From Phycisphaera mikurensis NBRC 102666 (GTDB lineage: Bacteria; Planctomycetota; Phycisphaerae; Phycisphaerales; Phycisphaeraceae), in contig NC_017080.1 in NCBI RefSeq assembly GCF_000284115.1, positions 3,030,001 to 3,062,000 on the forward strand: 32,000 nucleotides of DNA, written 5' to 3'. This document shows, one piece after another, positions 18,461 to 30,210 of this stretch. A program made the translations under genes and the position numbers. Within the stretch, counting starts at the first letter, position 1, and each line of letters begins with the position of its first letter. The notes under the pieces were generated by a model. That model did not search any database. It was given only the letters and a program-made list of their open reading frames with translations, and was not told the DNA's origin.

Positions 18461-18507
18461 CGCACGGGAAGCGGGTCCGGAGTCAAACGTCCAAAACGTT
18501 CAGCCGC

Positions 18508-18535
18508 AGGATAGGCAAGCCGCCCCCGCCGTCAA
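18508..18535 (-). promoter_or_regulatory. Candidate sigma70-like promoter, about 75 nt upstream of the 18425-18460 terminator
   Basis: The minus strand reads TTGACG (18535-18530), a 16-nt spacer, then TATCCT (18513-18508). Confidence 0.4.
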
Positions 18536-18710
18536 GAGGCCATCCATCGGTCGGGCTTTGCGCGGGTTCTCCACCGCGATCGTTCGCTCCAAATCGGCCA
18601 GGTCGTTCCTCACCGATTCCCGCCGCCCCTATGCTCCCGGGTGCGTCCGGCGTCCGCCGGGGCCGCACACCCCGCTGCTCCACGGCTTCACCGCTTTCCT
18701 GCCCCGCGTT

Positions 18711-19625
18711 TTGGAACCCACTTTCTCTCCCCGCCGCGTCGCCCGAGCCATCGGGGTCAGCGAGTCGTCGCTCAAGCGTTGGGCGGACGACGGGCGGCTT
18801 TCCGTGCACCGCACGGTCGGAGGGCACCGCAGGATCCACCGCGCCGAGGCGCTGCGGTTCGTGCGTGAGGCGGGGCTGCAGGTGCGTCGGCCCGACCTGC
18901 TGGGCCTGCCCAACCCCAGCGTGCCCACCGACGGGAGCGGGCGGGCCCGCGAGGGCGGCGACCCCGCCGCCACGCTGTACGACCTGCTCACCGCCTGCCA
19001 CCCCCGCGGGGTCCACGCGTTCCTGCTCGACCTGTACATGAGCGGGATGCCCGTGGCGGCCATCTGCGACGGCCCGATCCGCGAGGCGATGTCCCGCATC
19101 GGCGAGCTGTGGAAGTGCGAGCGGGAACGCGGGATCGTCGTGGAGCACCGGGCGACCTCCGCTCTGCTCCAGGGCGTCGCCTCGCTGCGTTCGGTCGTCA
19201 CCCACGCCCCGCAAGAGGGACTCGAACACCGGGTCCGCCCGGTCGTGCTCGGCGGCTCTCCCACCGGCGATCCGTACCTGATGCCCTCGATCCTCACCGC
19301 CTGGGTGCTCGCCGAGGCGGGGTTCGCCGACATCAACCTCGGCCCGGAGACGCCGGCGGAAGCCTTCGTCTCCGCCATCGACGACCACAAGCCCGCGATC
19401 GCCTGGATTGCCTGCTCGGTGCCCGACGCGCGGCCGAGCACCAACGATCTGAAGGACGTGCTCAAGGCCCTCGCCCCCCACGGCGGCTCCCTGGTCATCG
19501 GTGGCCGCGGCTTCTCTGCCGACCCACCCCCGCCGCTGCCGCGGATGAGCTTCTGCGCCACGATGAGCGACATCCACGGCTTCACCGCCGCGTTGCGCGA
19601 GCTCGACGCCGCGCCGGGGAACTGA
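18711..19625 (+). CDS. DNA-binding protein: N-terminal excisionase/MerR-type HTH fused to a cobalamin-binding-like (B12-binding_2 plus Rossmann-like) domain
   Basis: FSPRRVARAIGVSESSLKRWADDGRLSVHRTVGGHRRIHRAEALRFV is the HTH. The C-terminal VVLGGSPTGDPYLMPSILTAWVLAEAGF...VIGGRGF has the B12-domain layout. There is no in-frame ATG before the HTH, so I place the start at TTG 18711 (uncertain). The stop lies 27 nt before thrS. Confidence 0.75.
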   Translation: MEPTFSPRRVARAIGVSESSLKRWADDGRLSVHRTVGGHRRIHRAEALRFVREAGLQVRRPDLLGLPNPSVPTDGSGRAREGGDPAATLYDLLTACHPRGVHAFLLDLYMSGMPVAAICDGPIREAMSRIGELWKCERERGIVVEHRATSALLQGVASLRSVVTHAPQEGLEHRVRPVVLGGSPTGDPYLMPSILTAWVLAEAGFADINLGPETPAEAFVSAIDDHKPAIAWIACSVPDARPSTNDLKDVLKALAPHGGSLVIGGRGFSADPPPPLPRMSFCATMSDIHGFTAALRELDAAPGN

Positions 19626-19652
19626 TCGCTCCGCCGCCGGTACGTTGACCGC

Positions 19653-21743
19653 ATGCCTCGCGTACAGCTGCCGGATGGAACGAACGTCGACGCCCCCGCC
19701 GACGCCACCGCGCGCACCGTCGCCGCCGGCATCGGCGAAGGTCTGGCCAGGGCCGCCCTCGGCGCCCGCGTTGCCGGCGAGCTCGTCGACGCCGACCGGC
19801 CCCTCGCCGAAGCCGCCCCCGCCGGCGCGGAGGAGCCGCTGGAGCTGGGCATCGTCACCGCTCCCCGCTCCGACAAGAAAGGCCGGAGCAAGTGGCGGGA
19901 CGATGCCCACGAGAAGGACGCCCTGTTCCTGCTCCGCCACTCCGCCGCGCACGTCATGGCCGAGGCGATCCTGCGGCTGCATCCCGATGCGGAGCTCGCC
20001 TACGGCCCCCCGTTGGAGACCGGCTTCTATTACGACCTCGCGCTGGAGACGCCGATCTCCAGCGACGACTTCGAGAAGATCGAGGCGTCGATGCGTGAGA
20101 TCGCCGAGGAGGACCGCCCTTTCACCCGGATCGGTCTTCCCGTGGCCGACGGCCGGATCAAGCTCGAGGCCGAGGGCAACAAGTACAAGCTCGACAACGC
20201 CGATCGCGCCGCGGACCAGGGCGCCAACGTTCTGTCTTGGTACATCACCGGTGAGGCGGGCTCGGGCGCCTTCGAAGACCTCTGCCAAGGCCCGCACGTC
20301 GACCGCACCGGCCGGCTGGGCGCCTTCAAGATCACCGCCGTCAGTCAGTCCCACTGGCACGGCGACACCAACAGCGATCGCTTCCAGCGCGTCTACGGCA
20401 CCGCCTTCTTCACCGAGGCCGACCTGGCCGATCACCTCGAGAAGCTGGAGGAGGCCAAGCAGCGGGACCACCGCGTCATCGGCAAGAGGCTCGGCCTGTT
20501 CGCGATCGACGAGGAGGTCGGCGGCGGGCTGGTGCTGTGGAAGCCCGACGGCGCCGTGATCCGCCAGGAGCTGCAGACCTTCATCGGCGAGCACCTCGCT
20601 CGTCAGGGCTACAGCCAGGTCTTCACGCCGCACATCGGCAAGCTGGGCCTCTACCGCACCAGCGGGCACTTCCCGTACTACGCCGACTCCCAGTTTCCCC
20701 CGCTGATCGACCGCGAGACGATCGGCAAGCTCGCCGACGAGGGCTGCTCCTGCGCCGACCTCTCCGCGAAGCTCAGCGCCGGCGACGTCGACGGGTACCT
20801 GCTCAAGCCGATGAACTGCCCGCACCACATCCGCATCTACGCGGACGGCAAGCACAGCCACCGGGACCTGCCCATCCGCCTCGCTGAATTCGGCACCGTG
20901 TACCGCTGGGAGCAGAGCGGCGAGCTCGGCGGAATGACCCGCGTCCGCGGCTTCACCCAGGACGACGCCCACCTGTTCGTCACGCCGGAGCAGCTTGGTG
21001 CCGAGGTCCGCGGCTGCATCGACCTGGTGAAAGCCGTTTTTGAAACCCTCGGCATGGCCGACTACCGCGTGCGGGTCGGGCTGCGAGACCCCGACTCCTC
21101 GAAGTTCGTCGGCGATCCGGAGGACTGGGACCTGGCGGAGCGAGCCTGCAGGGAGGCGGCATCCTCCCTGGGCGTTGCCTTCTCGGAAGAACCCGGCGAG
21201 GCCGCGTTCTATGGCCCGAAGATCGACTTCGTCGTCCGCGACGTGATCGGTCGCGAGTGGCAGCTGGGCACGGTGCAGGTGGACTATCAGCTGCCGCAGC
21301 GTTTCGGCCTGCGTTACACCGGCGCCGACAACGCCGAGCACGTTCCGGTGATGATCCACCGCGCGCCCTTCGGCAGCATGGAGCGTTTCGTCGGCTGCCT
21401 GATCGAGCACTTCGGCGGGCGTTTCCCCCTCTGGCTCGCCCCCCACCAGGTCCGCGTCCTGCCCGTCAGCGAGAAATTCGATGGCTATGCCGGCCAGATC
21501 TGCGAGGAGCTGAAGGCCGCCGGCCTCCGCGCCTCCGTGGACAGCCGCAGCGGCCGCGTCGGGGCGAAGATCGCGAGCGCTCAGGCACAAGAGGTTCCGT
21601 ACATGCTCGTCGTCGGCGGCAAGGACGAGGCCGCCGGCACCGTCAGCGTCCGCACCCTCACCGCCGACCTCGGTGCCGTTCCCCGCGCCAGCTTCCTCGC
21701 GCGCGTCATCCGGGAGCGCGACGAGCGGGCGCTGCCTGCTTGA
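19653..21743 (+). CDS. thrS: Threonine--tRNA ligase
   Basis: ATG was verified at 19653. The protein has a TGS domain, then the editing-domain motif HSAAHVMA...HWHGD. Class II core motifs follow (FPYY, MNCPHH, YRWEQSGELGGMTRVRGFTQDDAHLF, GFYGPKIDF, MIHRAPFGSMERF), then an anticodon-binding tail. Confidence 0.97.
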   Translation: MPRVQLPDGTNVDAPADATARTVAAGIGEGLARAALGARVAGELVDADRPLAEAAPAGAEEPLELGIVTAPRSDKKGRSKWRDDAHEKDALFLLRHSAAHVMAEAILRLHPDAELAYGPPLETGFYYDLALETPISSDDFEKIEASMREIAEEDRPFTRIGLPVADGRIKLEAEGNKYKLDNADRAADQGANVLSWYITGEAGSGAFEDLCQGPHVDRTGRLGAFKITAVSQSHWHGDTNSDRFQRVYGTAFFTEADLADHLEKLEEAKQRDHRVIGKRLGLFAIDEEVGGGLVLWKPDGAVIRQELQTFIGEHLARQGYSQVFTPHIGKLGLYRTSGHFPYYADSQFPPLIDRETIGKLADEGCSCADLSAKLSAGDVDGYLLKPMNCPHHIRIYADGKHSHRDLPIRLAEFGTVYRWEQSGELGGMTRVRGFTQDDAHLFVTPEQLGAEVRGCIDLVKAVFETLGMADYRVRVGLRDPDSSKFVGDPEDWDLAERACREAASSLGVAFSEEPGEAAFYGPKIDFVVRDVIGREWQLGTVQVDYQLPQRFGLRYTGADNAEHVPVMIHRAPFGSMERFVGCLIEHFGGRFPLWLAPHQVRVLPVSEKFDGYAGQICEELKAAGLRASVDSRSGRVGAKIASAQAQEVPYMLVVGGKDEAAGTVSVRTLTADLGAVPRASFLARVIRERDERALPA

Positions 21744-22126
21744 GGCACGCCCATCCCCCCCCATCCTTCATTTGCGCTTGCGGACCGCGGAGCCGGAGGC
21801 CGCACGAGAGCCCCCACCCGCGAAACATGCCGCGCGGTCTCTAGCACCCGAGAGAGACTGCCCGCGGCGGCTTCCCCTCCTCTCCAGCCTTCCGCAGGGG
21901 CCTGGCCACCTCCAGGAACGGCTGCGGACGCGGGTTCTTGGCCGATGATGCTCGCCCGGGGCGGAATCGACGGCTGGGAGGACGCGGTTGGACGCTGCCG
22001 TCGAGTTACCGGGAGGTGAGAAGCCGCAATCGGTGCTTGGACGCCGGTTTTCGCGTCTGTGGGCGCAGCAGACAGCCGAGGCCGCGGGCGGCACGGTCTC
22101 GACGCAGGGCATGAGAAGGGACCCGC

Positions 22127-23119
22127 TCAGAAGTGCGGCGAGCCGCGGGCGAAGCGCGGGAAGCCGGAAAGCAGGTCGTCGGGATCCAGCCCCAGACGCT
22201 CGAAGATGGAAGCGGCGTCACGGGGGATCGTCGCCTTCCCCTCGCGGAACAGGCGCGAGGCGATGTCGAGGAGATTCAGATAACGCCGCAGCGTGAGCCC
22301 GGGGAGGACCACGCGGGAAGCCGTTTCGCCACCCGGCGACGCGTCCCCCTCAAGCGCCACCAGCCACGAAGCGGGGGTGCGGGCCTCCGGAGCGGCGGCC
22401 ACGGAGGTAAGGCACCCGAGGCGGCCCTCCAGGGAGGTGAAGCGACCGGCTTCGGGGGTGATGCAGAGGCGGGCGGCCAGCGGGTTCAAGTCGACGTAGA
22501 CCATCGTCTTCACGAGCTGGCCACGCTCCTGATCCGTGATCGGCTTGCTCTTGAAGCGACCGGCCCAGAAGGGGCCCTTGGCTCCGTCGAGCTTGTTCGC
22601 CACGACGGCGACGTGCTGCTTGAGGTCCTTCATGAACTGCGAAAGGTTCATCAGCTTCCGGCGGGTGCTGGCGACGAACTCGGCGTCACCGGCCAGCGCA
22701 GCGACGTCCTCAGGCTCCAACGCCACCGGCCCGCGTCGATCCCGGACCGGGTGCAGCGACAGCCAGCGGCCAACGACCTCCTCGGGGGACCAGGCGCTTC
22801 CCCAACCCGGGACGCTCCTCAGAACGAGATGGATGTGATTCCCCATCACGCAGAAGGCGATCACCTCAATGCAGAAGACGCCCGCCAGCCGCTCCACCCG
22901 GTCCAGGAGCAGCCGCTTGTGTCCGTCGACCATCCCGTCGAGCACACGATCATCCTCGCGGAACTCCGGCGGCGGTTCATCCAGAAGGAACAGCTCCCGC
23001 GAGCAGCGGCTCGTGACGTGCCAGACCTGCGGACGCTCCGGGTCGACGACGAGGTGGCGATTGCGGCGAGCGATGCGGAAGCCTTGCAGCCCGAAGAAAC
23101 GCGGAGGACCCGGAACCAA
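22127..23119 (-). CDS. RayT / IS200-like HUH-Y1 nuclease (REP-associated tyrosine transposase-like), 330 aa with a C-terminal extension
   Basis: AFCVMGNHIHLVL carries the HUH motif. GPFWAGRFKSKPI...VYVDLNPLAARL carries the catalytic Tyr helix (Y-x-x-x-NP). There is no in-frame ATG before the conserved N-terminus, so I place the start at TTG 23119 (GGAG 4 nt upstream), 11 nt after the upstream stop. Confidence 0.8.
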   Translation of the reverse strand: MVPGPPRFFGLQGFRIARRNRHLVVDPERPQVWHVTSRCSRELFLLDEPPPEFREDDRVLDGMVDGHKRLLLDRVERLAGVFCIEVIAFCVMGNHIHLVLRSVPGWGSAWSPEEVVGRWLSLHPVRDRRGPVALEPEDVAALAGDAEFVASTRRKLMNLSQFMKDLKQHVAVVANKLDGAKGPFWAGRFKSKPITDQERGQLVKTMVYVDLNPLAARLCITPEAGRFTSLEGRLGCLTSVAAAPEARTPASWLVALEGDASPGGETASRVVLPGLTLRRYLNLLDIASRLFREGKATIPRDAASIFERLGLDPDDLLSGFPRFARGSPHF

Positions 23120-23130
23120 GCGTCTCCACC

Positions 23131-26100
23131 CTAACGGTCGCTCTTCCGAATGGCAAGGCTCATGTTCGGTCCCTGATCGAGGTCTCCGCCGGCGGCGGGG
23201 GTCGGCCGCGGGCTCTTTCCGCCGGCGTGTCGCAGGCGCGAGCGCGATCCATCCGAAGGCCGTGGCTGATTCATCGCCTCGCAGCAGGCCCGCACGGTGT
23301 CGATGACCCGGCCCGCCGCTCCTGTCGCCTCCTCGAGCCCGTACATCATCAGCACCGACCGCGCGCGGGTCATCGCGACGTAGAGGCTGTCGGCCAGGGG
23401 GCCGCGGCTTCTCGCCACGAAGCCGTCGAGGCCGAGGATCACCACGACCTCGGCTTCGTGGCCCTTGAAGGATTGCGCGGTGGTCAGCAGCAGCGTGTTC
23501 TCGCGTCGTTCGAAGCCGCGGCCGGTCTGCCGCGACAGCTCGATGCCGATCGCCCGCATCGCGGGGCCGAGGAGCGCCTCCGCCTCGGCGCTCACGGCCG
23601 CGCCGTTGTACAGAAGCACGACGTCGGCCGCAGGCACCCGCTCGTCCACCAGCAGCCACCGCAGGTGCTTGGCGACGGCGGCCAGCTCCAGGGTGCGCGT
23701 CGCGAGCGTTCGGAGCCTCGGCGGCGGCCCCTCGCGGTCGTTGAAGCGGACGCCGATCCACCGCTCGCCCTCGCGCTCCTCGAGCACCACGAGCCTCCGC
23801 CGGACGAACTCCTTCAGGTCGGTCCGCCCCGCCGCGTCGGCGAGCCGCTCGCGGACGTTGATCGCGAGCTCCGCGACCGGCCGCGTCCCGCGGAAGCTTT
23901 CGGTCATCACCGTCGACCGCCCACGCACGTCGAGGCCGAGATGAGACCACACCGGCGGCTTCCGGTCGTACACGTTCTGCGCGTTGTCGTAGAAGACGTG
24001 CGCCGCCCGGCGGCCCGCGTCCTCGGGATCGGTTGCCCGCACCATCGCCAGCAGCAGGCGCAGCGTGGCGGGGCTCATGTCCTGCGCCTCGTCGATGAAC
24101 AGCGCCTCGCAGCGCGGCAGCCCCGACGCGGCATCGCCGTCGACGCCTCCGTTCCGGGCCAGCAGCCACTCCGCCGCGGCGTCGTGCTCGAAATCGTCCT
24201 TCCCCAGCCGGCCCGAGCCACCGGGCAGCAGGTCGCGGAGAACGTCGCGCACGTGCAGCAGCTGCGTCCGCTCCCAGGGGAAGGCTTCCTGACCGAAGAG
24301 CCCGCCGTCCGCCCGCGCCCGCTCGAACCAGGCCTGCTCCACACCGCTCCGCAGCATCGGCTCCAGAGCGCGGTTGGCGAAGACCGCCCACACCTGCGAC
24401 CCCGCATCGGGCCAGCCTTCCCGGCCGAAACGGAGCACCGTCTTCACGAGCCAGTGGCAGAGGACCAGCGACTTCCCGCTGCCCGCGACCCCGCGGACCA
24501 GACGCGGTTTGCCGTCGAGCGGGAGGTCCACCAGCCGCTGCTGCTCGGCGGAGAGCACCGGAGACGAGGCTCGCCGCCGGGCGATCTGGCCGCCGAGCGT
24601 GTCGGCGTGGGCCGCGTCGTCGACGGCGTAGGCCGCCCGCGATTCCGACACGCGGTCCGCCTCGACCGCCTCCCACAGCGGCGGGTCGCCGGGCCGCAGC
24701 CGCGACGCGGTCAGCGTCTGCCGCAGGGCCGCGAGGTACGGCTGGGCCATCTCATCGCGGCTGGCGAGGACGACCACGGCCTCCCGTGCCCGCGAGAGCG
24801 CCACGTTCACCAGCCGCCGCCACTCCTCCGCCGGGAAGCCAGCGCTGCCGGCGTGCACCGTGTCGAAGACGACGACGTCCGCCTGCGAGCCCTGCTGCCG
24901 GTGGACCGTCGACGCCGACCACGACGTGGAGCCGCGCACCCTCAGCCACGCGCTCACCGCGTCCGCCTGCGCCCGGTACGGCGAGACGAAGAGCCCGTGC
25001 TTGTCGTGCAACCCGCAGCCGTCGATGAGCCGCCCGAGCAGGTCCATCGTCACCGGCCTCACCCAGCTCCGCCCGCCGGGCCCGCGCTCGGCCCGCATCC
25101 GCGCCAGCGGCACGTCCTCCGCGTCGAGCACCCACCACACGACTCTTCCGTGCTCCGCGAGGGGAGACGGCAGCTTCGAAGCACGCGCGGCGGTCTCCGG
25201 GGCCGTCTCAAGGAAGCCGCCGTAGCGGTAGCCCGAAACCACGCGGCAGACCTCCGGGTGCATCCGCCGCTGCTCCTTCAACACGTGGACGCCGCGCGGC
25301 GCGTCGGCCGGGTCGTCCAGGTGCGAGAGGGCCGACGATCGCAGCCACCGCTGCTCCCGCGTGGGCAGCAGCCGTGCCCGCGTCGCGATCGGGGAGAGCT
25401 GCCGCGGGTCCCCGACCAGCACCACCCGCCGCGCCGCCAGCAGCGACAGCGCCGCGACCGACGCCCGCGAGAGCAACCCGGCCTCGTCGATGACGACCGT
25501 CGTGAACGGGGCGTCGTCGTCCTCGATCATCTCCCGCACCCGCTCCCGCTTCAGCTGGGCCGAGCCCGCGGCCGAGGTCGCCACCACCGCGCGGACGCAG
25601 GGGTCGAGGAAGACGTCGCCGCCGCCGGGTCGGGCGGCGAGACGGGAGATCCGCAACCGCGAGCGCGCCCGCTCCGCGGCCTCACGCTCGCTCGCGATCG
25701 CCTCCTGCAGCGCTTCGATCTCGGCCGCGGTGGCTTCATCCGCTCCGCGCAGCATCGACGCCAGCCCGGCCCGCTCGAAGTCGGTACGCCGTGCCCCGCG
25801 TCCCGGTCGGCACACCCCGGCGACCGCGCCGGCCAGGTCGATCTCCTCGGTCGCCCCCGAACGCGCCGCGACCGCCTCCTCGATCAACGCCCCGCCGATC
25901 GACAGGGCCACCTCGTCCGTCGCCCGGTTGGTCGTCGAGAGCACGAGCACCCGCTCGGATGGATCCCGGAGGGCCGCCGCCACTTGGAGCCCGGTCGTGT
26001 GGGTCTTGCCGGTGCCCGGCGGCCCCCACAACACCGACCACCCGCGTCCCCACCAGCCCGAAAGCTCCGAGAGGGCACCCGACCGCACCGCCTCTTCCGG

Positions 26101-26805
26101 CTCGGGCACCCGCGGGTGGATCCCGCCGCGCGACGCACGCAGCCGCGGCCCCAGCCGCTCTCGCACCGCCGCGTAGGCGTCTGCCGTGTAGACCAGGTCC
26201 ATCGCCTCCTGATGATCGAACGGCGACACCCAGAACGCTCCGCGGCCGGGCACCTGCGCCGGGTCCCGCAACGCCACGAACACCACGGCGTTCGCCTCGT
26301 CCACCTCCAGCACCTCACCCCGCCACCGCACCCAGTCCTCCGGCGGCGGATCCCGCATCAGCCGCTCCCGCACGCCGGCCAGCCCCTCCACCAGCCCGAA
26401 GGCGCTGGCTCCCTCCCAGGTCCAGTCGCAGGCGTCGGCTCCCTCGACCTTGATGGCCACGACCGCCGAGGCCGCGTCGCCCGGTCCCGCCTCCTCCGCC
26501 CGCGCCTCCACGTCGACCCGAACCGCGGACAGGCGGCGGGGCACCAGCCGCTCGGCGCTCTCCTCCCGGACCGCCCGGGCGGCCTCTGCGAGCTCCTCGA
26601 CGCCGGGCCCGGGCAGGCGCAGCGACACCGGAAACGAGGCGGGTTCGAAGTCCGCAGCGGTCCCGGTGCCGGGCTCGGCGGAAGCTTCAGCCACGCCGCG
26701 ACCCCGTGTCGTTGCTCCCACGGCAAGCCCGCGGCCGCACCGGAACCCGATGGTCTGTGGAGCCCGGGGCCGGACCCGGATCCGGAACGAGGGCCGGGTC
26801 CGCAA
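23131..26805 (-). CDS. Large (up to 1,224 aa) protein with two different SF1 helicase modules in tandem behind an unassigned ~250-aa N-terminal region
   Basis: The ORF is single and uninterrupted. Module 1 motifs are WGPPGTGKTHT, VVIDEAGLL, LVGDPRQLSPI, EQRRMHPEV, VHRQQGSQADVVVF and VNVALSRAREAVVV, a Upf1/DNA2-like pattern. Module 2 motifs are SAEQQRLV..VRGVAGSGKS, ALFIDEAQDM, TAQSFKGHEAEVVVILG and LYVAMTRARSVLMM, a UvrD-like pattern. The start is uncertain, either TTG 26805 (longest ORF) or in-frame GTG 26694. Confidence 0.85.
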   Translation of the reverse strand: MRTRPSFRIRVRPRAPQTIGFRCGRGLAVGATTRGRGVAEASAEPGTGTAADFEPASFPVSLRLPGPGVEELAEAARAVREESAERLVPRRLSAVRVDVEARAEEAGPGDAASAVVAIKVEGADACDWTWEGASAFGLVEGLAGVRERLMRDPPPEDWVRWRGEVLEVDEANAVVFVALRDPAQVPGRGAFWVSPFDHQEAMDLVYTADAYAAVRERLGPRLRASRGGIHPRVPEPEEAVRSGALSELSGWWGRGWSVLWGPPGTGKTHTTGLQVAAALRDPSERVLVLSTTNRATDEVALSIGGALIEEAVAARSGATEEIDLAGAVAGVCRPGRGARRTDFERAGLASMLRGADEATAAEIEALQEAIASEREAAERARSRLRISRLAARPGGGDVFLDPCVRAVVATSAAGSAQLKRERVREMIEDDDAPFTTVVIDEAGLLSRASVAALSLLAARRVVLVGDPRQLSPIATRARLLPTREQRWLRSSALSHLDDPADAPRGVHVLKEQRRMHPEVCRVVSGYRYGGFLETAPETAARASKLPSPLAEHGRVVWWVLDAEDVPLARMRAERGPGGRSWVRPVTMDLLGRLIDGCGLHDKHGLFVSPYRAQADAVSAWLRVRGSTSWSASTVHRQQGSQADVVVFDTVHAGSAGFPAEEWRRLVNVALSRAREAVVVLASRDEMAQPYLAALRQTLTASRLRPGDPPLWEAVEADRVSESRAAYAVDDAAHADTLGGQIARRRASSPVLSAEQQRLVDLPLDGKPRLVRGVAGSGKSLVLCHWLVKTVLRFGREGWPDAGSQVWAVFANRALEPMLRSGVEQAWFERARADGGLFGQEAFPWERTQLLHVRDVLRDLLPGGSGRLGKDDFEHDAAAEWLLARNGGVDGDAASGLPRCEALFIDEAQDMSPATLRLLLAMVRATDPEDAGRRAAHVFYDNAQNVYDRKPPVWSHLGLDVRGRSTVMTESFRGTRPVAELAINVRERLADAAGRTDLKEFVRRRLVVLEEREGERWIGVRFNDREGPPPRLRTLATRTLELAAVAKHLRWLLVDERVPAADVVLLYNGAAVSAEAEALLGPAMRAIGIELSRQTGRGFERRENTLLLTTAQSFKGHEAEVVVILGLDGFVARSRGPLADSLYVAMTRARSVLMMYGLEEATGAAGRVIDTVRACCEAMNQPRPSDGSRSRLRHAGGKSPRPTPAAGGDLDQGPNMSLAIRKSDR

Positions 26806-27018
26806 CGGAGATGCGCAAGCCCGATCGCTCCTTCGCGATGGGGCGTCGGGAGCGGAAGATCAAGACAATCTCCTTCAGAAACCGGCCCCCAAGCCAGGAG
26901 CCGGGCGAGCGACCGCACCCGATTCCGCGAACACCGTAGCCGGCATCGCGAGGCTCAACGAGCCGGCCGCCGCCGGGCCGCGACCCGGGCCGCCTCGCTG
27001 CCGCCCCTCCGGCCCCGG

Positions 27019-27040
27019 GCGGACCGCGGGCGGACCGCGG
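27019..27040. repeat. Two tandem GCGGACCGCGG units, with a complementary CCCGGTCCGCGGGGG at 27133-27147
   Basis: This is the same 11-mer found in the stem-loops at 3096, 8691 and 15230 and at 21780-21790. It lies in the 468-bp divergent intergenic region upstream of the helicase gene. Confidence 0.6.
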
Positions 27041-27273
27041 GCGGCTCGGCACCCACGCCGCGGAGGATTCTGTCCTGAGAAGATTACCGGAGGGATCGCA
27101 CGAACGCCGGGTGGCGCTCCGCAGCGGGCGTGCCCGGTCCGCGGGGGTTGGCATGGCGTGTGGCCCGCGCCACCCGCGTGTCGAAGGTCCTGCTTCGGGT
27201 GCTCGGGACGCATCTCCCGCTGTCCTTCCGTGCGCGGCCGCCGCCCGCCTCGCCCGGTAGCGTCCCGCCGCCC

Positions 27274-28119
27274 ATGCTTCCTCCCAGCGAGTCCGCCGAC
27301 GACGCCGACCCGCCGCGGCCGCTGCGGGCGGGCGCGGTCTTCGAGCGCCTGTGGCTGCGGCGGGCGGACGGGCGGCTGACGCTGTCGAGCCGCGGGCCGG
27401 TGGCGCGGTGGCTGCTGCCGGCGATCAACACGCTGCCGGCGCTGTGCCTGCTGCCCGCGGCGGCGGCGTGGGCCCTCATCGGCTGGGGGTTGATGAACCC
27501 GACCCCCGCGGCGCCGCCGCCGGCCGCGGGGGTCGCGGTCGTGATGGTGGCGATGGTGCTGGCTGGCGGCCTGCTCCCCCTGCTGCTCATCCTGAGCCTG
27601 CTGGCGTGGTGCGGCGTCGGTCGCGGCGTGGCGATCGAGCTCGACGCCGATCGGCAACGCTGCCGGGTGCGGCGCTCGCGCCTCGGCCTGCCCGCGGCCA
27701 TCATCGCGTGCGAGCTGGCAGACGCGAGCATCACGCTCCGGCGGCGCACCGCGGTGGGGGGCGGGCCGGAGGGGCGGAGGGGAGCGCCGGGCCGCGCCCG
27801 CTCCATCGGAAGCGGCTTGCTGATCGTCCTGGCCCTGATCAACCCGCTGTTCCTCATCCTCTCGCTGGCGATGGGGCGGCGGCGGTCCGCGGTGGACCCC
27901 GCGAACCCGCGGCCGACCTTCGCGCTGGACGTGACCGCGGACGGACACCAGCCCTTCGGCAGGCGGCTCGTCTGCGCCGGACAGGCGGCCTCCGCCGCCG
28001 AGGCCTTCGTCGCCGCCTGGGAACGAGCCCGCCGCGAGCGGTTCCGCTCCGGTTTCGAGCCCGCAGCCGGGGCACGCGCCGGGCTCCACGAGGCCCCAGC
28101 CCCTTCCCGAGCCCGATGA
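27274..28119 (+). CDS. Hypothetical integral membrane protein (about 3 TM segments), no recognisable domain
   Basis: ATG was verified at 27274. GC3 in this frame is nearly 100%. Hydrophobic segments are LLPAINTLPALCLLPAAAAWALIGWGL, GVAVVMVAMVLAGGLLPLLLILSLLAW and GLLIVLALINPLFLILSLA. Confidence 0.65.
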   Translation: MLPPSESADDADPPRPLRAGAVFERLWLRRADGRLTLSSRGPVARWLLPAINTLPALCLLPAAAAWALIGWGLMNPTPAAPPPAAGVAVVMVAMVLAGGLLPLLLILSLLAWCGVGRGVAIELDADRQRCRVRRSRLGLPAAIIACELADASITLRRRTAVGGGPEGRRGAPGRARSIGSGLLIVLALINPLFLILSLAMGRRRSAVDPANPRPTFALDVTADGHQPFGRRLVCAGQAASAAEAFVAAWERARRERFRSGFEPAAGARAGLHEAPAPSRAR

Positions 28120-28226
28120 TCCGCCTCCGAGGAGAAGCCCCGGCCGTGCGGGATGGAGCGCGAACGCCGGGCAGACCGGCCTCGGAGCGACGGCGTCCGC
28201 CGCGGATCGCGACCAAGAAGAACGGC

Positions 28227-28829
28227 CTACCCCGTCGGCGCTGTCCAAGGCACGTCCGCCACGCCGGCGGCGTGGTTCGCGTAGCGGGCCATCGCGAAGA
28301 GCAGATCCGACAGGCGGTTCAGGTAGACGCCGGTCGGCGGCTCGTCGCCCTGGTGGTCCTCGTCCACGTCGTCCTGCTCCTCCACGCGGCCGAGGCTGAC
28401 GCAGCAACGCTCCGCGCGCCGGCAGATCGTGCGGGCCAGGTGCAGCCGGGCCGAGAGCTCGGTGCCGCCGGGGAGGATGAAGCTGGTCATCGCGGGCACG
28501 GCCGCGTCGACGGTGTCGATCCAGCCCTCGATCTCGGCGATGTGCTCGGGCCCGATCCGGGGCACCATCCGGCCGCCCTTCCCGTCGCGCTTGGGCGTGG
28601 CGAGGTCGGCGCCGATCTCGAAGAGGCGGCGCTGGATCGATCCCAGCGGGCCGGCGATGAGCGAGAGGCCTTCTCCCGCCGCTTCGAGCCGCACGGCGGC
28701 GAGACCCACGGCGGCGTTGAGCTCGTCGACGGTGCCGTAAGCCTCCACCCGCAGGTGGTCCTTGGGGACGCGTCCGCCGCCGAACAGGTCCGTGAGGCCG
28801 CGGTCGCCCCGCTTGGTGTAGAGCTTCAA
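28227..28829 (-). CDS. PduO-type ATP:cob(I)alamin adenosyltransferase
   Basis: (M)KLYTKRGDRGLTDLFGG...RVPKDHLRVEAYGTVDELNA...RTICRRAER...YLNRLSDLLFAMAR matches the MMAB/PduO N-terminal domain pattern. The TTG start at 28829 overlaps the upstream stop (TTGA). Confidence 0.88.
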   Translation of the reverse strand: MKLYTKRGDRGLTDLFGGGRVPKDHLRVEAYGTVDELNAAVGLAAVRLEAAGEGLSLIAGPLGSIQRRLFEIGADLATPKRDGKGGRMVPRIGPEHIAEIEGWIDTVDAAVPAMTSFILPGGTELSARLHLARTICRRAERCCVSLGRVEEQDDVDEDHQGDEPPTGVYLNRLSDLLFAMARYANHAAGVADVPWTAPTG

Positions 28830-29224
28830 GGCATGCCTTCCATCTCGGAACCCAGAGCGACGATCGTGCCATCGCCGTCCCGAACGTACGCAACGGTCTG
28901 CCCCCAGGGGTGCTCGACGGGCGCGGCAAAGGCTTCGGCGCCGGAAGCGACCGCCCGCTCGTACGCGGCCTGCACGTCGTCGACCACGAAGCTGACCTCG
29001 AAGCCGATCGGACGGCGGGCGGCGTCGGTTTCGCGGTAGCTGCCGTCGAAGAGGGTCGCGGCGAGCCGATGGCTGGCGAAAGCCAGCTTCGTGGTGCCGG
29101 TGTCCAGCTCCCCGTAGTCGCCGCTCTCGTGCACGAAACCGGGCCGGACCCCGAAGGCCCGCTGCCAGAACGCGAGCGAGTCCTGCACCCGCTCCACGTA
29201 GACGATGGTGTGGGAGAAGCGCAT
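28826..29224 (-). CDS. VOC-family protein (glyoxalase/bleomycin-resistance/dioxygenase fold)
   Basis: ATG was verified at 29224. MRFSHTIVYVERVQDSLAFWQRAFG...FEVSFVVDDVQAAYERAV...PWGQTVAYVRDGDGTIVAL shows the paired beta-alpha-beta-beta-beta module pattern. Confidence 0.85.
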   Translation of the reverse strand: MRFSHTIVYVERVQDSLAFWQRAFGVRPGFVHESGDYGELDTGTTKLAFASHRLAATLFDGSYRETDAARRPIGFEVSFVVDDVQAAYERAVASGAEAFAAPVEHPWGQTVAYVRDGDGTIVALGSEMEGMP

Positions 29225-29307
29225 GCCGGCGACCGTACCCCAAGCGCCGCGGCCGGAGGCCGGTTCGGCGGCCCGCTACCCTCGCCGCCCGCCGCCGGGC
29301 CGCCGCC

Positions 29308-30210
29308 ATGACCGAATCCACCCCCGGGCGGTCCGCCGCCGAACCCGCCTCCCCCGTGCTCAGCTCGCCGCTCGTCGACGTCCAGGGCAAGTCCGATGGG
29401 CGGCGCGTGCCGATCGACCGGGTCGGCGTGAAGAACGTCCGCTACCCCATCTCGCTGGCGACGCCCGCCGGGGGGGCGCACGCCGGCCCGCGCCAGCACA
29501 CCATCGCCCGGATCGACATGTACGTCTCGCTGCCCCACCACCAGAAGGGCACGCACATGAGCCGCTTCCTGGAGGTGCTCAACGAGCACCACGACGGGCT
29601 GCCCAGCCACGACGTGATGAACCTGTGCCGCGCCATCCGCGAGCGCCTCGAGGCCGAGGACGCGCACCTGCGGTTGGAGTTCCCGTACTTCATCGACAAG
29701 CGAGCCCCGGTGACCGGGCAGCCCGGCAAGCTGGACATCGAGGTCGTGCTTGAGGCCCACGCGAGCGGGAGCGAGCCGGGGCCCGACGCGCCGATCGGCC
29801 CGGCGAGCCCCGGCTTCACGATGACGGTGCGCGTCCCCGCCACCTCGCTGTGCCCGTGCAGCAAAGAGATCTCCGCCTACGGCGCCCACAACCAGCGTTG
29901 CGAGATGGAGGCAAGCGTCCGCTTCTTTCCCGGCAAGCGGATGTGGATCGAGGACCTCTTCGCGATCGTCGAGGGCTGCGCGAGCACCCAGGTGTTCTCG
30001 ACGCTCAAGCGGCCCGATGAGAAGTTCGTGACCGAGGCCGCTTACGACAACCCCAAGTTCGTGGAGGACATCGTGCGCGACCTCGCGATGGCGATGGAAG
30101 CCGACGACCGCGTGTCTTGGTACCGGGTGGGCAGCGAAAACTTCGAGTCCATCCACTCGCACAACGCGTACGCGCAGCTGGAGCACGCGAAGAGCGCGGA
30201 GCCGCAATGA
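29308..30210 (+). CDS. folE2: GTP cyclohydrolase FolE2 (type IB)
   Basis: ATG was verified at 29308. Motifs are DRVGVKNVRYPI, HQKGTHMSRF, VPATSLCPCSKEIS..GAHNQR and FVEDIVRD...NFESIHSHNAYA. Confidence 0.92.
   Translation: MTESTPGRSAAEPASPVLSSPLVDVQGKSDGRRVPIDRVGVKNVRYPISLATPAGGAHAGPRQHTIARIDMYVSLPHHQKGTHMSRFLEVLNEHHDGLPSHDVMNLCRAIRERLEAEDAHLRLEFPYFIDKRAPVTGQPGKLDIEVVLEAHASGSEPGPDAPIGPASPGFTMTVRVPATSLCPCSKEISAYGAHNQRCEMEASVRFFPGKRMWIEDLFAIVEGCASTQVFSTLKRPDEKFVTEAAYDNPKFVEDIVRDLAMAMEADDRVSWYRVGSENFESIHSHNAYAQLEHAKSAEPQ

Follow-up and report, generated by a model that had tools for sequence, protein, structure and literature searches.

RecBCD is a machine with two helicase motors of superfamily 1 (SF1), both of which are active and run on opposite strands. 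To our knowledge, the well-studied dual-motor SF1 machines (RecBCD, AdnAB and AddAB) are all multi-subunit and equipped with nucleases, and the well-studied tandem-helicase polypeptides (TraI and Brr2) are all duplications within one lineage, in which one of the cassettes is degenerate or regulatory. Helicases also act in bacterial immunity. One of them, the DUF2075 helicase Nhi, has been proven to act against phages as a single protein; its one module unwinds from both 5' and 3' tails, and is in this sense bipolar. The Mokosh system is defined by a PLD nuclease, either part of the helicase protein or encoded by an adjacent gene, to which type I adds a Ser/Thr kinase domain; its defence needs ATP binding by its helicase. 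Here, we analyze a gene of Phycisphaera mikurensis NBRC 102666 whose product joins two SF1 helicase modules, each of a different lineage, in a single chain. It is found on the minus strand of a 32,000-nucleotide stretch of DNA (NC_017080.1, positions 3,030,001 to 3,062,000), called the window from here on, in which all positions below are counted. Tandem and dual-motor helicases are as a kind already known, and we classify this two-lineage single-chain family as conserved but uncharacterised: searches of the open-access literature for tandem or fused SF1 helicases found no description of a fusion between an Upf1-like and a UvrD/SLFN-like helicase, and none of the NCBIfam models names the tandem family.

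Two helicase lineages in one chain

An earlier note on this DNA, made from its sequence, had proposed that one polypeptide unites two different SF1 lineages, an Upf1/DNA2-like half (module 1) being followed by a UvrD-like half (module 2). The fusion itself is borne out, as Pfam, PADLOC, the PDB and Foldseek assign the two halves differently. A simple internal duplication is contradicted by the direct comparison of the two modules, which are not detectably similar (best BLASTP E=0.46; hhalign probability of 3.8%, over motifs V-VI only). The motifs quoted in the earlier note for both modules are each present exactly once in the open reading frame (ORF), at the place it gave for them, which goes well past what chance would produce. 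That two modules of different SF1 lineages share this chain is, in our judgment, very nearly certain.

The lineage of module 1 is well defined. It passes the Pfam gathering cut-off, 27 bits in both cases, for AAA_12 (79.1 bits) and AAA_11 (58.6 bits), and a sequence search of the PDB returns SETX, IGHMBP2, Upf1/Nam7, DNA2 and Sen1 at E values from 8e-14 to 3e-6. The PADLOC model of MkoA (PDLC03920) matches it at 3.3e-43, over the helicase part of the profile only (635-1081 of 1112). When a full-length AlphaFold2 model of the protein (pLDDT 74.6, pTM 0.64) is compared with the PDB in Foldseek, Sen1, SETX, IGHMBP2, Upf1 and DNA2 come out at E values from 8e-22 to 1e-18. The Pfam, PDB and Foldseek results thus agree with the Upf1/DNA2-like SF1B identity first proposed for this half; characterised Upf1-like and DNA2-like enzymes all translocate 5'->3'. 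Ahead of the module lies a conserved N-terminal region without a match in the Pfam and NCBIfam scans. It contains an invariant DWTWEGA (26427-26407), and in the model it forms a small alpha/beta element, three beta-strands that may make up a barrel, and helices. Since the Foldseek alignments to Sen1, IGHMBP2 and Upf1 cover ~700 columns and span both this region and module 1, the N-terminal region may be the accessory part, of the 1B barrel or stalk type, of an Upf1-like helicase. The two together can be read, on the model, as a complete Upf1/IGHMBP2/Sen1-like SF1B helicase.

Module 2 is more remote from described families. In the window protein it stays under the Pfam cut-offs of PF00580 (UvrD-helicase; 17.0 bits for a cut-off of 23), PF13538 (UvrD_C_2; 23.9 for 27.4) and PF09848 (SLFN-g3_helicase; 12.9-19.3 for 24). 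Across the family, the same models are matched at E<=0.01 by most or all members: UvrD_C_2 and UvrD-helicase by 17/17 each, SLFN-g3_helicase by 15/17 (best E 4.7e-8) and UvrD_C (PF13361) by 14/17. The PADLOC model for NERD+UvrD candidates (C3a187) matches module 2 at 6.8e-18, as do several GajB models. Because sequence searches of the PDB, using either the single sequence or a 17-sequence profile, gave nothing significant (UvrD1 and FBH1 appear only at E ~0.3), we classed the module from its fold and from its relatives. A separate model of module 2 (pLDDT 81.3, pTM 0.72) is closest in Foldseek to the helicase domains of SLFN11 and SLFN14 (E 4.8e-14 for SLFN11), followed by PcrA, UvrD and Rep (E ~3e-12, TMq 0.57-0.59). 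Upf1-type structures rank lower (E ~3e-10, TMq 0.47-0.49), and HelD, which associates with RNA polymerase, is also among the matches. Canonical UvrD-type signatures comprise a Q motif, DExQD, DxxQxIY, an xYRS-like motif, HxxKGxE and TRA(R/K); module 2 carries UvrD-type motifs on invariant columns (LSxEQQ, FIDEAQD, FYDNAQNIY, SFRS/G, SxKGxExEVV and AMTRAR). In the model, the segment from motif IV to the 2A core is only ~60 aa long, so that a 2B domain of UvrD size seems to be absent. The closest relatives of module 2 outside the fusion are NERD + UvrD-like proteins of ~680 aa (E 1e-50 to 1e-63), of which P0229 and P0249 carry NERD and pass the Pfam UvrD cut-offs; no NERD domain was found in the window protein by Pfam scans. 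The idea that the second half is a UvrD-like SF1A helicase is therefore upheld in part. A UvrD-like or SLFN-like lineage is supported by the Pfam matches of the family, the motifs, PADLOC and Foldseek, but a bona fide SF1A motor is not established, the best fold being that of SLFN11/14 and the Pfam UvrD scores lying below cut-off. Structure prediction of the full chain and of module 2, proposed in the earlier note as a check, has yielded folds that match the Sen1/Upf1 group and the SLFN/UvrD group, respectively.

Neither of the modules appears to be vestigial, in agreement with the earlier note, to which their ATPase motifs had looked intact. In an alignment of 32 diverse family members, the two modules show no variation (32/32) in Walker A, in Walker B or in motifs III-VI, nor in the motifs that contact nucleic acid (Ia, III, IV and V). 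Pairwise identity averages 68.2% in module 1 and 68.9% in module 2. Judged by these sequences, both modules look active, and the alignment shows equal purifying selection on the two.

Distribution and genomic settings of the family

The same two-module layout is found in many other genomes. A search with the whole protein gave at least 120 full-length homologues with lengths of 1109-1244 aa, which align to 88-95% of the query and are 45-61% identical to it, and a search with a Gimesia member as query returned 611 clusters (at 90% identity) at E<=1e-100. The named members in these searches all belong to the Planctomycetota (Gimesia, Planctomicrobium, Anatilimnocola, Stieleria, Novipirellula, Rubripirellula, Roseiconus, Neorhodopirellula and Rhodopirellula). 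The annotations that members carry go no further than 'AAA domain-containing protein', 'superfamily I DNA/RNA helicase' or 'ATP-dependent RecD-like DNA helicase'; planctomycete genomes are large and poorly annotated, and ~600 clusters are labelled only with the first of these names or as 'RecD-like helicase'. A profile of module 2, searched exhaustively, gave 250 representatives (50% identity clusters) at E<=1e-30. Among the best 150 of them, ~80 are proteins of 1040-1360 aa with module 2 at ~640-1100. The most divergent two-module representatives keep AAA_11/AAA_12 followed by SLFN-g3/UvrD_C, and those that carry names come from metagenome-assembled genomes (MAGs) of Myxococcota (two names). 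The fusion is ancient and widespread. A scan of a genome collection gave, among the matches listed, one full-length locus (L004) and, from many phyla, relatives that have one of the modules only; these matches are dominated by generic Walker-A patterns (WGPPGTGK, VRGVAGSGK).

Some variants carry further domains. In a protein of 1854 aa (P0168), the two helicase modules are preceded by a STAND/NACHT NTPase, and two other longer two-module proteins (P0179 and P0170) show an FHA-like N-terminus or a C-terminal zinc finger, both of them weak matches. In a protein of 967 aa (P0267), an N-terminal protein kinase takes the place of NERD and is fused to a helicase like module 2.

Identities within the family ignore taxonomy. 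The protein of Stieleria neptunia is 88% identical to that of Rubripirellula lacrimiformis and 74% to that of another Stieleria, and the Planctomicrobium protein is nearer to Novipirellula (70%) than to Gimesia (65%). Within Gimesia the distribution is patchy: G. chilikensis has two alleles with 86% identity, one Gimesia sp. MAG is found at 89%, and among the top matches no other named Gimesia rises above the 62-66% level of other families. For these reasons the tandem helicase behaves as an accessory gene that is exchanged horizontally. It also behaves as a stand-alone gene, with no conserved neighbour, partner gene or synteny across the loci of 11 relatives and the window.

These 12 loci, given as raw counts, are of two kinds. 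In five to six of them the neighbourhood is rich in defence or mobile-element genes. The G. chilikensis locus contains TIR, SNF2 and SACS genes together with BrxL and PglZ (BREX genes), and the Anatilimnocola locus a type I restriction-modification system with CTD6, MC2, AAA_23, RES, DUF932 and WYL. The Rubripirellula locus has a CRISPR-Cas I-C system and a transposase, and a further one (L065) has an MmeI-like gene, SNF2, TIR, DUF4365, ArdC and an integrase. The helicase gene of Planctomicrobium sp. SH527 is preceded, at a distance of 8 nt from its start, by an HTH_3 (Xre-type) gene of 109 aa (L061, 7663-7992) and followed by an Abi_alpha gene, which suggests a regulated defence-type cassette in this genome; the locus also has an HTH-M78 gene. 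The Stieleria locus, with TacAT and NACHT, is intermediate. We also observed that two different Planctomycetota genomes (L001, 2729-7821; L065, 245-4999) have an SNF2-family helicase gene and a TIR-domain gene at a few kb from the tandem helicase, on its upstream side. This recurrent pair may reflect a shared defence island or a multi-gene association.

Proposed role, its alternatives and the gene in the window

Gene context, the STAND fusion and the links of both modules to immune proteins (MkoA/Mokosh; NERD-UvrD, GajB, SLFN and Nhi) speak for a defence reading of the tandem helicase, and the protein kinase fused to a relative of module 2 (P0267) adds to the accessory or defence signal. In the mechanism that we propose, both motors would hydrolyse ATP. 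Module 1 would track 5'->3' on one strand, of RNA or DNA, and module 2 would track the complementary strand, probably 3'->5' to judge from its UvrD-type motifs; an SF1B and a UvrD-like lineage are compatible with such opposite polarities. Flexibly tethered to each other, the motors would advance in the same direction along a duplex end, a fork or an R-loop, in the manner of RecB and RecD. Without a nuclease of its own, such a surveillance or defence helicase could act alone by unwinding or stripping the replication or transcription intermediates of an invader, by displacing proteins, or through signalling or nucleotide exhaustion.

We do not grant the same credit to every part of this proposal. 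On an accessory or defence role, the balance is in our view even. The overall reading, that of a nuclease-free single-chain two-motor helicase with an accessory or defence role whose motors track opposite strands, is put forward tentatively, with slightly less than even confidence. The two-strand mechanism with opposite polarities, drawn by analogy, is on the doubtful side. In its strongest version, the proposal would make this a bipolar single-polypeptide helicase (Upf1-like 5'->3' plus UvrD-like 3'->5') that serves Planctomycetota and Myxococcota as a nuclease-free, stand-alone immune protein against phages and plasmids. This is improbable; if it holds, the protein would represent an effector class new to defence and the first natural case of a 'RecBCD motor pair in one chain'.

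Several observations weigh against the defence proposal or its mechanism. Pfam, NCBIfam and PADLOC scans found no nuclease or other effector domain in the window protein, N-terminal region and tail included, or in the six longer variants, which is unusual for helicase-based defence. Mean column identity is 63% over ~1100 aa, a high value for a defence gene. The neighbourhood sample is small, and the neighbours are housekeeping or nondescript genes in the window and in five to six of the 12 loci, among them both from Myxococcota. Annotated plasmid and phage collections, which hold few planctomycete elements, yielded no full-length relatives. Finally, the dual polarity 'as in RecBCD or AddAB' of the earlier note stays conjectural because the best fold match of module 2, SLFN11/14 of the DUF2075 clade, belongs to a group for which we know of no established polarity.

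Some of these same facts would fit a housekeeping role in genome maintenance, in which a Sen1/SETX-like 5'->3' RNA/DNA motor and a UvrD-like DNA motor clear R-loops, stalled RNA polymerases and replication-transcription collisions. The best structural matches of module 1, Sen1 and SETX, are R-loop and transcription-termination helicases, and those of module 2 include UvrD, Rep, PcrA and the polymerase-associated HelD. The high and equal conservation of both modules, the housekeeping character of several loci, the window included (thrS, cob adenosyltransferase, folE2), and the want of an effector domain all point the same way. However, a housekeeping gene sits poorly with the patchy distribution within Gimesia and the two divergent alleles of G. 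chilikensis, with identities that ignore taxonomy, with the lack of conserved synteny, with the half of the neighbourhoods that is rich in defence or mobile-element genes, and with the existence of a STAND-fused variant. We consider it unlikely.

It could also be that only one of the modules translocates, gated by the other acting as an ATP-dependent switch, sensor or clamp, with no bipolar translocation at all. There is precedent for this in every well-studied tandem-helicase polypeptide, the examples being Brr2 with its C-terminal cassette, AddB with its inactive helicase-like domain and TraI with its vestigial N-terminal helicase. Module 2 is compact and, by its predicted secondary structure, seems to lack a large UvrD-type 2B domain, and we know of no demonstrated unwinding by SLFN11-type helicase domains, its best fold. 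Yet the non-motor modules of the precedents have degenerate catalytic motifs, whereas the tandem helicase shows no variation in any motif of either module, the nucleic-acid-contacting Ia, III, IV and V included, and its two modules are equally conserved. A single motor is thus improbable, and we retain the reading with two motors.

The gene itself is a single unbroken ORF, running stop-to-stop from 26859 to a stop codon at 23133-23131. The interval first assigned to it (23131-26040) is too short, as the gene extends ~600-770 nt past the upper coordinate, through the conserved N-terminal region. The database version of the protein (P0001) has 1165 aa and starts at GTG 26628. Because the 32-sequence alignment shows a conserved 'FxPAxFxxxLxLP' stretch that is encoded ahead of this codon, the true start should lie upstream, and is probably GTG 26694, GTG 26721 or TTG 26805. 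GC content by codon position is 0.76/0.55/0.91, which is the pattern of real genes in a window with 71% GC, and is uniform along the ORF. The overall GC content of the helicase gene is 74.3%, to be compared with a mean of 71.2% for the window, 69.4% for thrS and 68.1% for the IS200-like gene that follows the helicase; this could be a sign of foreign origin or a composition specific to the gene. Two long ORFs run antisense to genes of the window. One lies opposite the helicase (23227-27078, plus strand, 1283 aa) and has the inverted codon-position GC of a shadow frame; the other lies opposite thrS (18483-21764, minus strand, 1093 aa). In both, GC peaks at codon position 2, unlike in real genes. 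Both are artefacts of the 71% GC composition, and automated gene callers could mis-annotate them.

Downstream of the helicase and on the same strand lies the IS200-like ORF, related to HUH proteins, which can start at a TTG 13 nt past the helicase stop, so that the two may be co-transcribed. This raises the possibility that the helicase is the cargo or helper of a mobile element and works with the HUH (IS200/RayT-like) protein, as in rolling-circle Rep-helicase pairs or TraI. The proximity of the two ORFs, the weak matches of the second to REP-associated tyrosine transposase and Y1_Tnp, and a helicase GC content above that of its flanks are in line with it. Nevertheless, both HUH matches are below the curated cut-offs, a Y1/HUH gene stands beside the helicase in 0/11 of the relatives' loci, and no terminal repeats, tRNAs or integration signature were found as element boundaries around the pair, whose flanking repeats are short, imperfect and as frequent as chance predicts in DNA of 71% GC. 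We regard a mobile-element helper as very improbable. The chance that the protein is an artefact, be it a decaying pseudogene or a false join of two adjacent genes through a frameshift in sequencing or assembly, is practically nil, given that the architecture is continuous in at least 120 homologues on independent contigs, including those of complete, closed genomes, that codon-position GC is uniform and that both modules are conserved.

Housekeeping genes also flank the locus (Table 1). The thrS gene neighbours the helicase, upstream of its 3' end. Divergent from the helicase, an ORF at 27130-28119 (plus strand) encodes a hydrophobic, Ala/Pro-rich protein without a Pfam or NCBIfam match, and its mirror ORF (27084-28226, minus strand) has the codon-position GC of a shadow frame. 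The stop-to-stop frame of FolE2 overlaps the glyoxalase gene, so its real start should be further downstream.

Table 1. Positions of the tandem helicase gene, its domains and motifs, and nearby genes in the window.
Feature	Position	Strand	Remarks
Whole tandem SF1 helicase ORF	23131..26805	-	1224 aa from TTG 26805, the earliest possible start
Conserved N-terminal region	26059..26805	-	~190-250 aa; many invariant columns; mean pairwise identity 57%
Module 1, Upf1/IGHMBP2/Sen1/DNA2-like SF1B core (RecA domains 1A + 2A)	24709..26058	-	P0001 residues ~191-640
Module 1 motif I, GPPGTGKT	26025-26002	-	
Module 1 motif II, DEAG	25488-25477	-	
Module 1 motif III, GDPRQLSP	25413-25390	-	
Module 1 motif IV, QRRMHP	25272-25255	-	
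Module 1 motif V, TVHRQQGSQADVVVF	24909-24865	-	
Module 1 motif VI, ALSRAR	24801-24784	-	
Linker joining the modules	24559..24708	-	~50 aa; mean pairwise identity 31%; lowered pLDDT
Module 2, compact UvrD/Rep/PcrA-like or SLFN-type SF1 core	23269..24558	-	P0001 residues ~691-1120
Module 2 Q motif, LSAEQQ	24555-24538	-	
Module 2 motif I, GVAGSGKS	24492-24469	-	
Module 2 motif Ia	24387-24367	-	
Module 2 motif II, FIDEAQD	24099-24079	-	
Module 2 motif III, FYDNAQNVY	23994-23968	-	
Module 2 motif IV, ESFRGT	23901-23884	-	
Module 2 motif V, SFKGHEAEVVV	within 23484-23440	-	
Module 2 motif VI, VAMTRAR	23379-23359	-	
C-terminal tail, predicted disordered	23134..23268	-	pLDDT <50 at residues 1125-1165; mean pairwise identity 30%
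REP-associated tyrosine transposase / IS200 Y1 HUH-related ORF	22127-23119	-	NCBIfam NF047646 4.7e-7, Pfam Y1_Tnp 8e-4, both below cut-off
PduO-type cob(I)alamin adenosyltransferase	28227-28826	-	
Glyoxalase/VOC protein	28826-29224	-	
FolE2 GTP cyclohydrolase	within 28996-30210	+	
MFS transporter fused to acyltransferase domain	30309 to beyond 32000	+	

Comparison with known systems

Other polypeptides are known that hold two helicase cassettes. TraI of the F and R1 plasmids does so, but both of its cassettes are RecD-like, one is vestigial and a relaxase is present. In the window protein no relaxase domain was found, the TraA_Ti and Dtr models touching the Walker-B region only and far below cut-off. 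Without a relaxase, and with modules that are unrelated in sequence, the protein is not of the TraI type. Brr2 and ASCC3 also have two cassettes per chain, which are duplications of a Ski2-like helicase of superfamily 2.

Closer likenesses are found, module by module, among immune proteins. The GajB models of PADLOC match module 2, but GajB works with the OLD nuclease GajA; neither the window nor any of the 11 loci has an OLD/TOPRIM gene beside the helicase, and we rejected membership in Gabija. SLFN11, SLFN14 and Nhi, the SLFN proteins and Nhi being immune proteins, offer the best structural match of module 2. In them the helicase is coupled to an N-terminal nuclease, whereas its partner here is a second helicase, and we do not count the protein as an Nhi since the defining nuclease was not found in it. 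Outside the fusion, module 2 has its nearest relatives in the NERD-UvrD proteins (C3a187), which differ in bearing a NERD nuclease domain at the place which a whole Upf1-like helicase occupies in the tandem protein. For module 1, the defence model that comes closest is MkoA, in its Upf1-like COG1112 helicase part. A second helicase is absent from Mokosh, however, and no PLD nuclease or kinase was found in the tandem helicase or its neighbours; with no PLD match in the protein, the window neighbours or the 11 relatives' loci, membership in Mokosh was rejected. The links of module 2 to human Schlafen proteins and of module 1 to Upf1 and Mokosh extend the list of immune-type helicase modules that are common to bacteria and animals, and the tandem helicase would reveal how a helicase without a nuclease can act in genome conflict.

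The comparison with RecBCD, AdnAB and AddAB is of another order, as it concerns the machine and not only its parts. These too join two SF1 modules of different lineages in one machine, and RecBCD combines the UvrD-like RecB (SF1A) with RecD (SF1B). They are nonetheless multi-subunit, with obligatory nucleases and in some cases Chi recognition, unlike the tandem helicase, which is a single chain in which no nuclease was found. The SF1B module is RecD in RecBCD and Upf1-like here, and the AddA and RecD models give only fragmentary, sub-threshold matches in the window protein. The single chain, and scans of Pfam, NCBIfam and PADLOC that found no nuclease family, led us to reject membership in the RecBCD/AddAB/AdnAB group. 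By analogy, we infer that the tandem helicase would work most like the RecB/RecD motor pair, and the family offers a compact natural system for the coordination of two motors of possibly opposite polarity.

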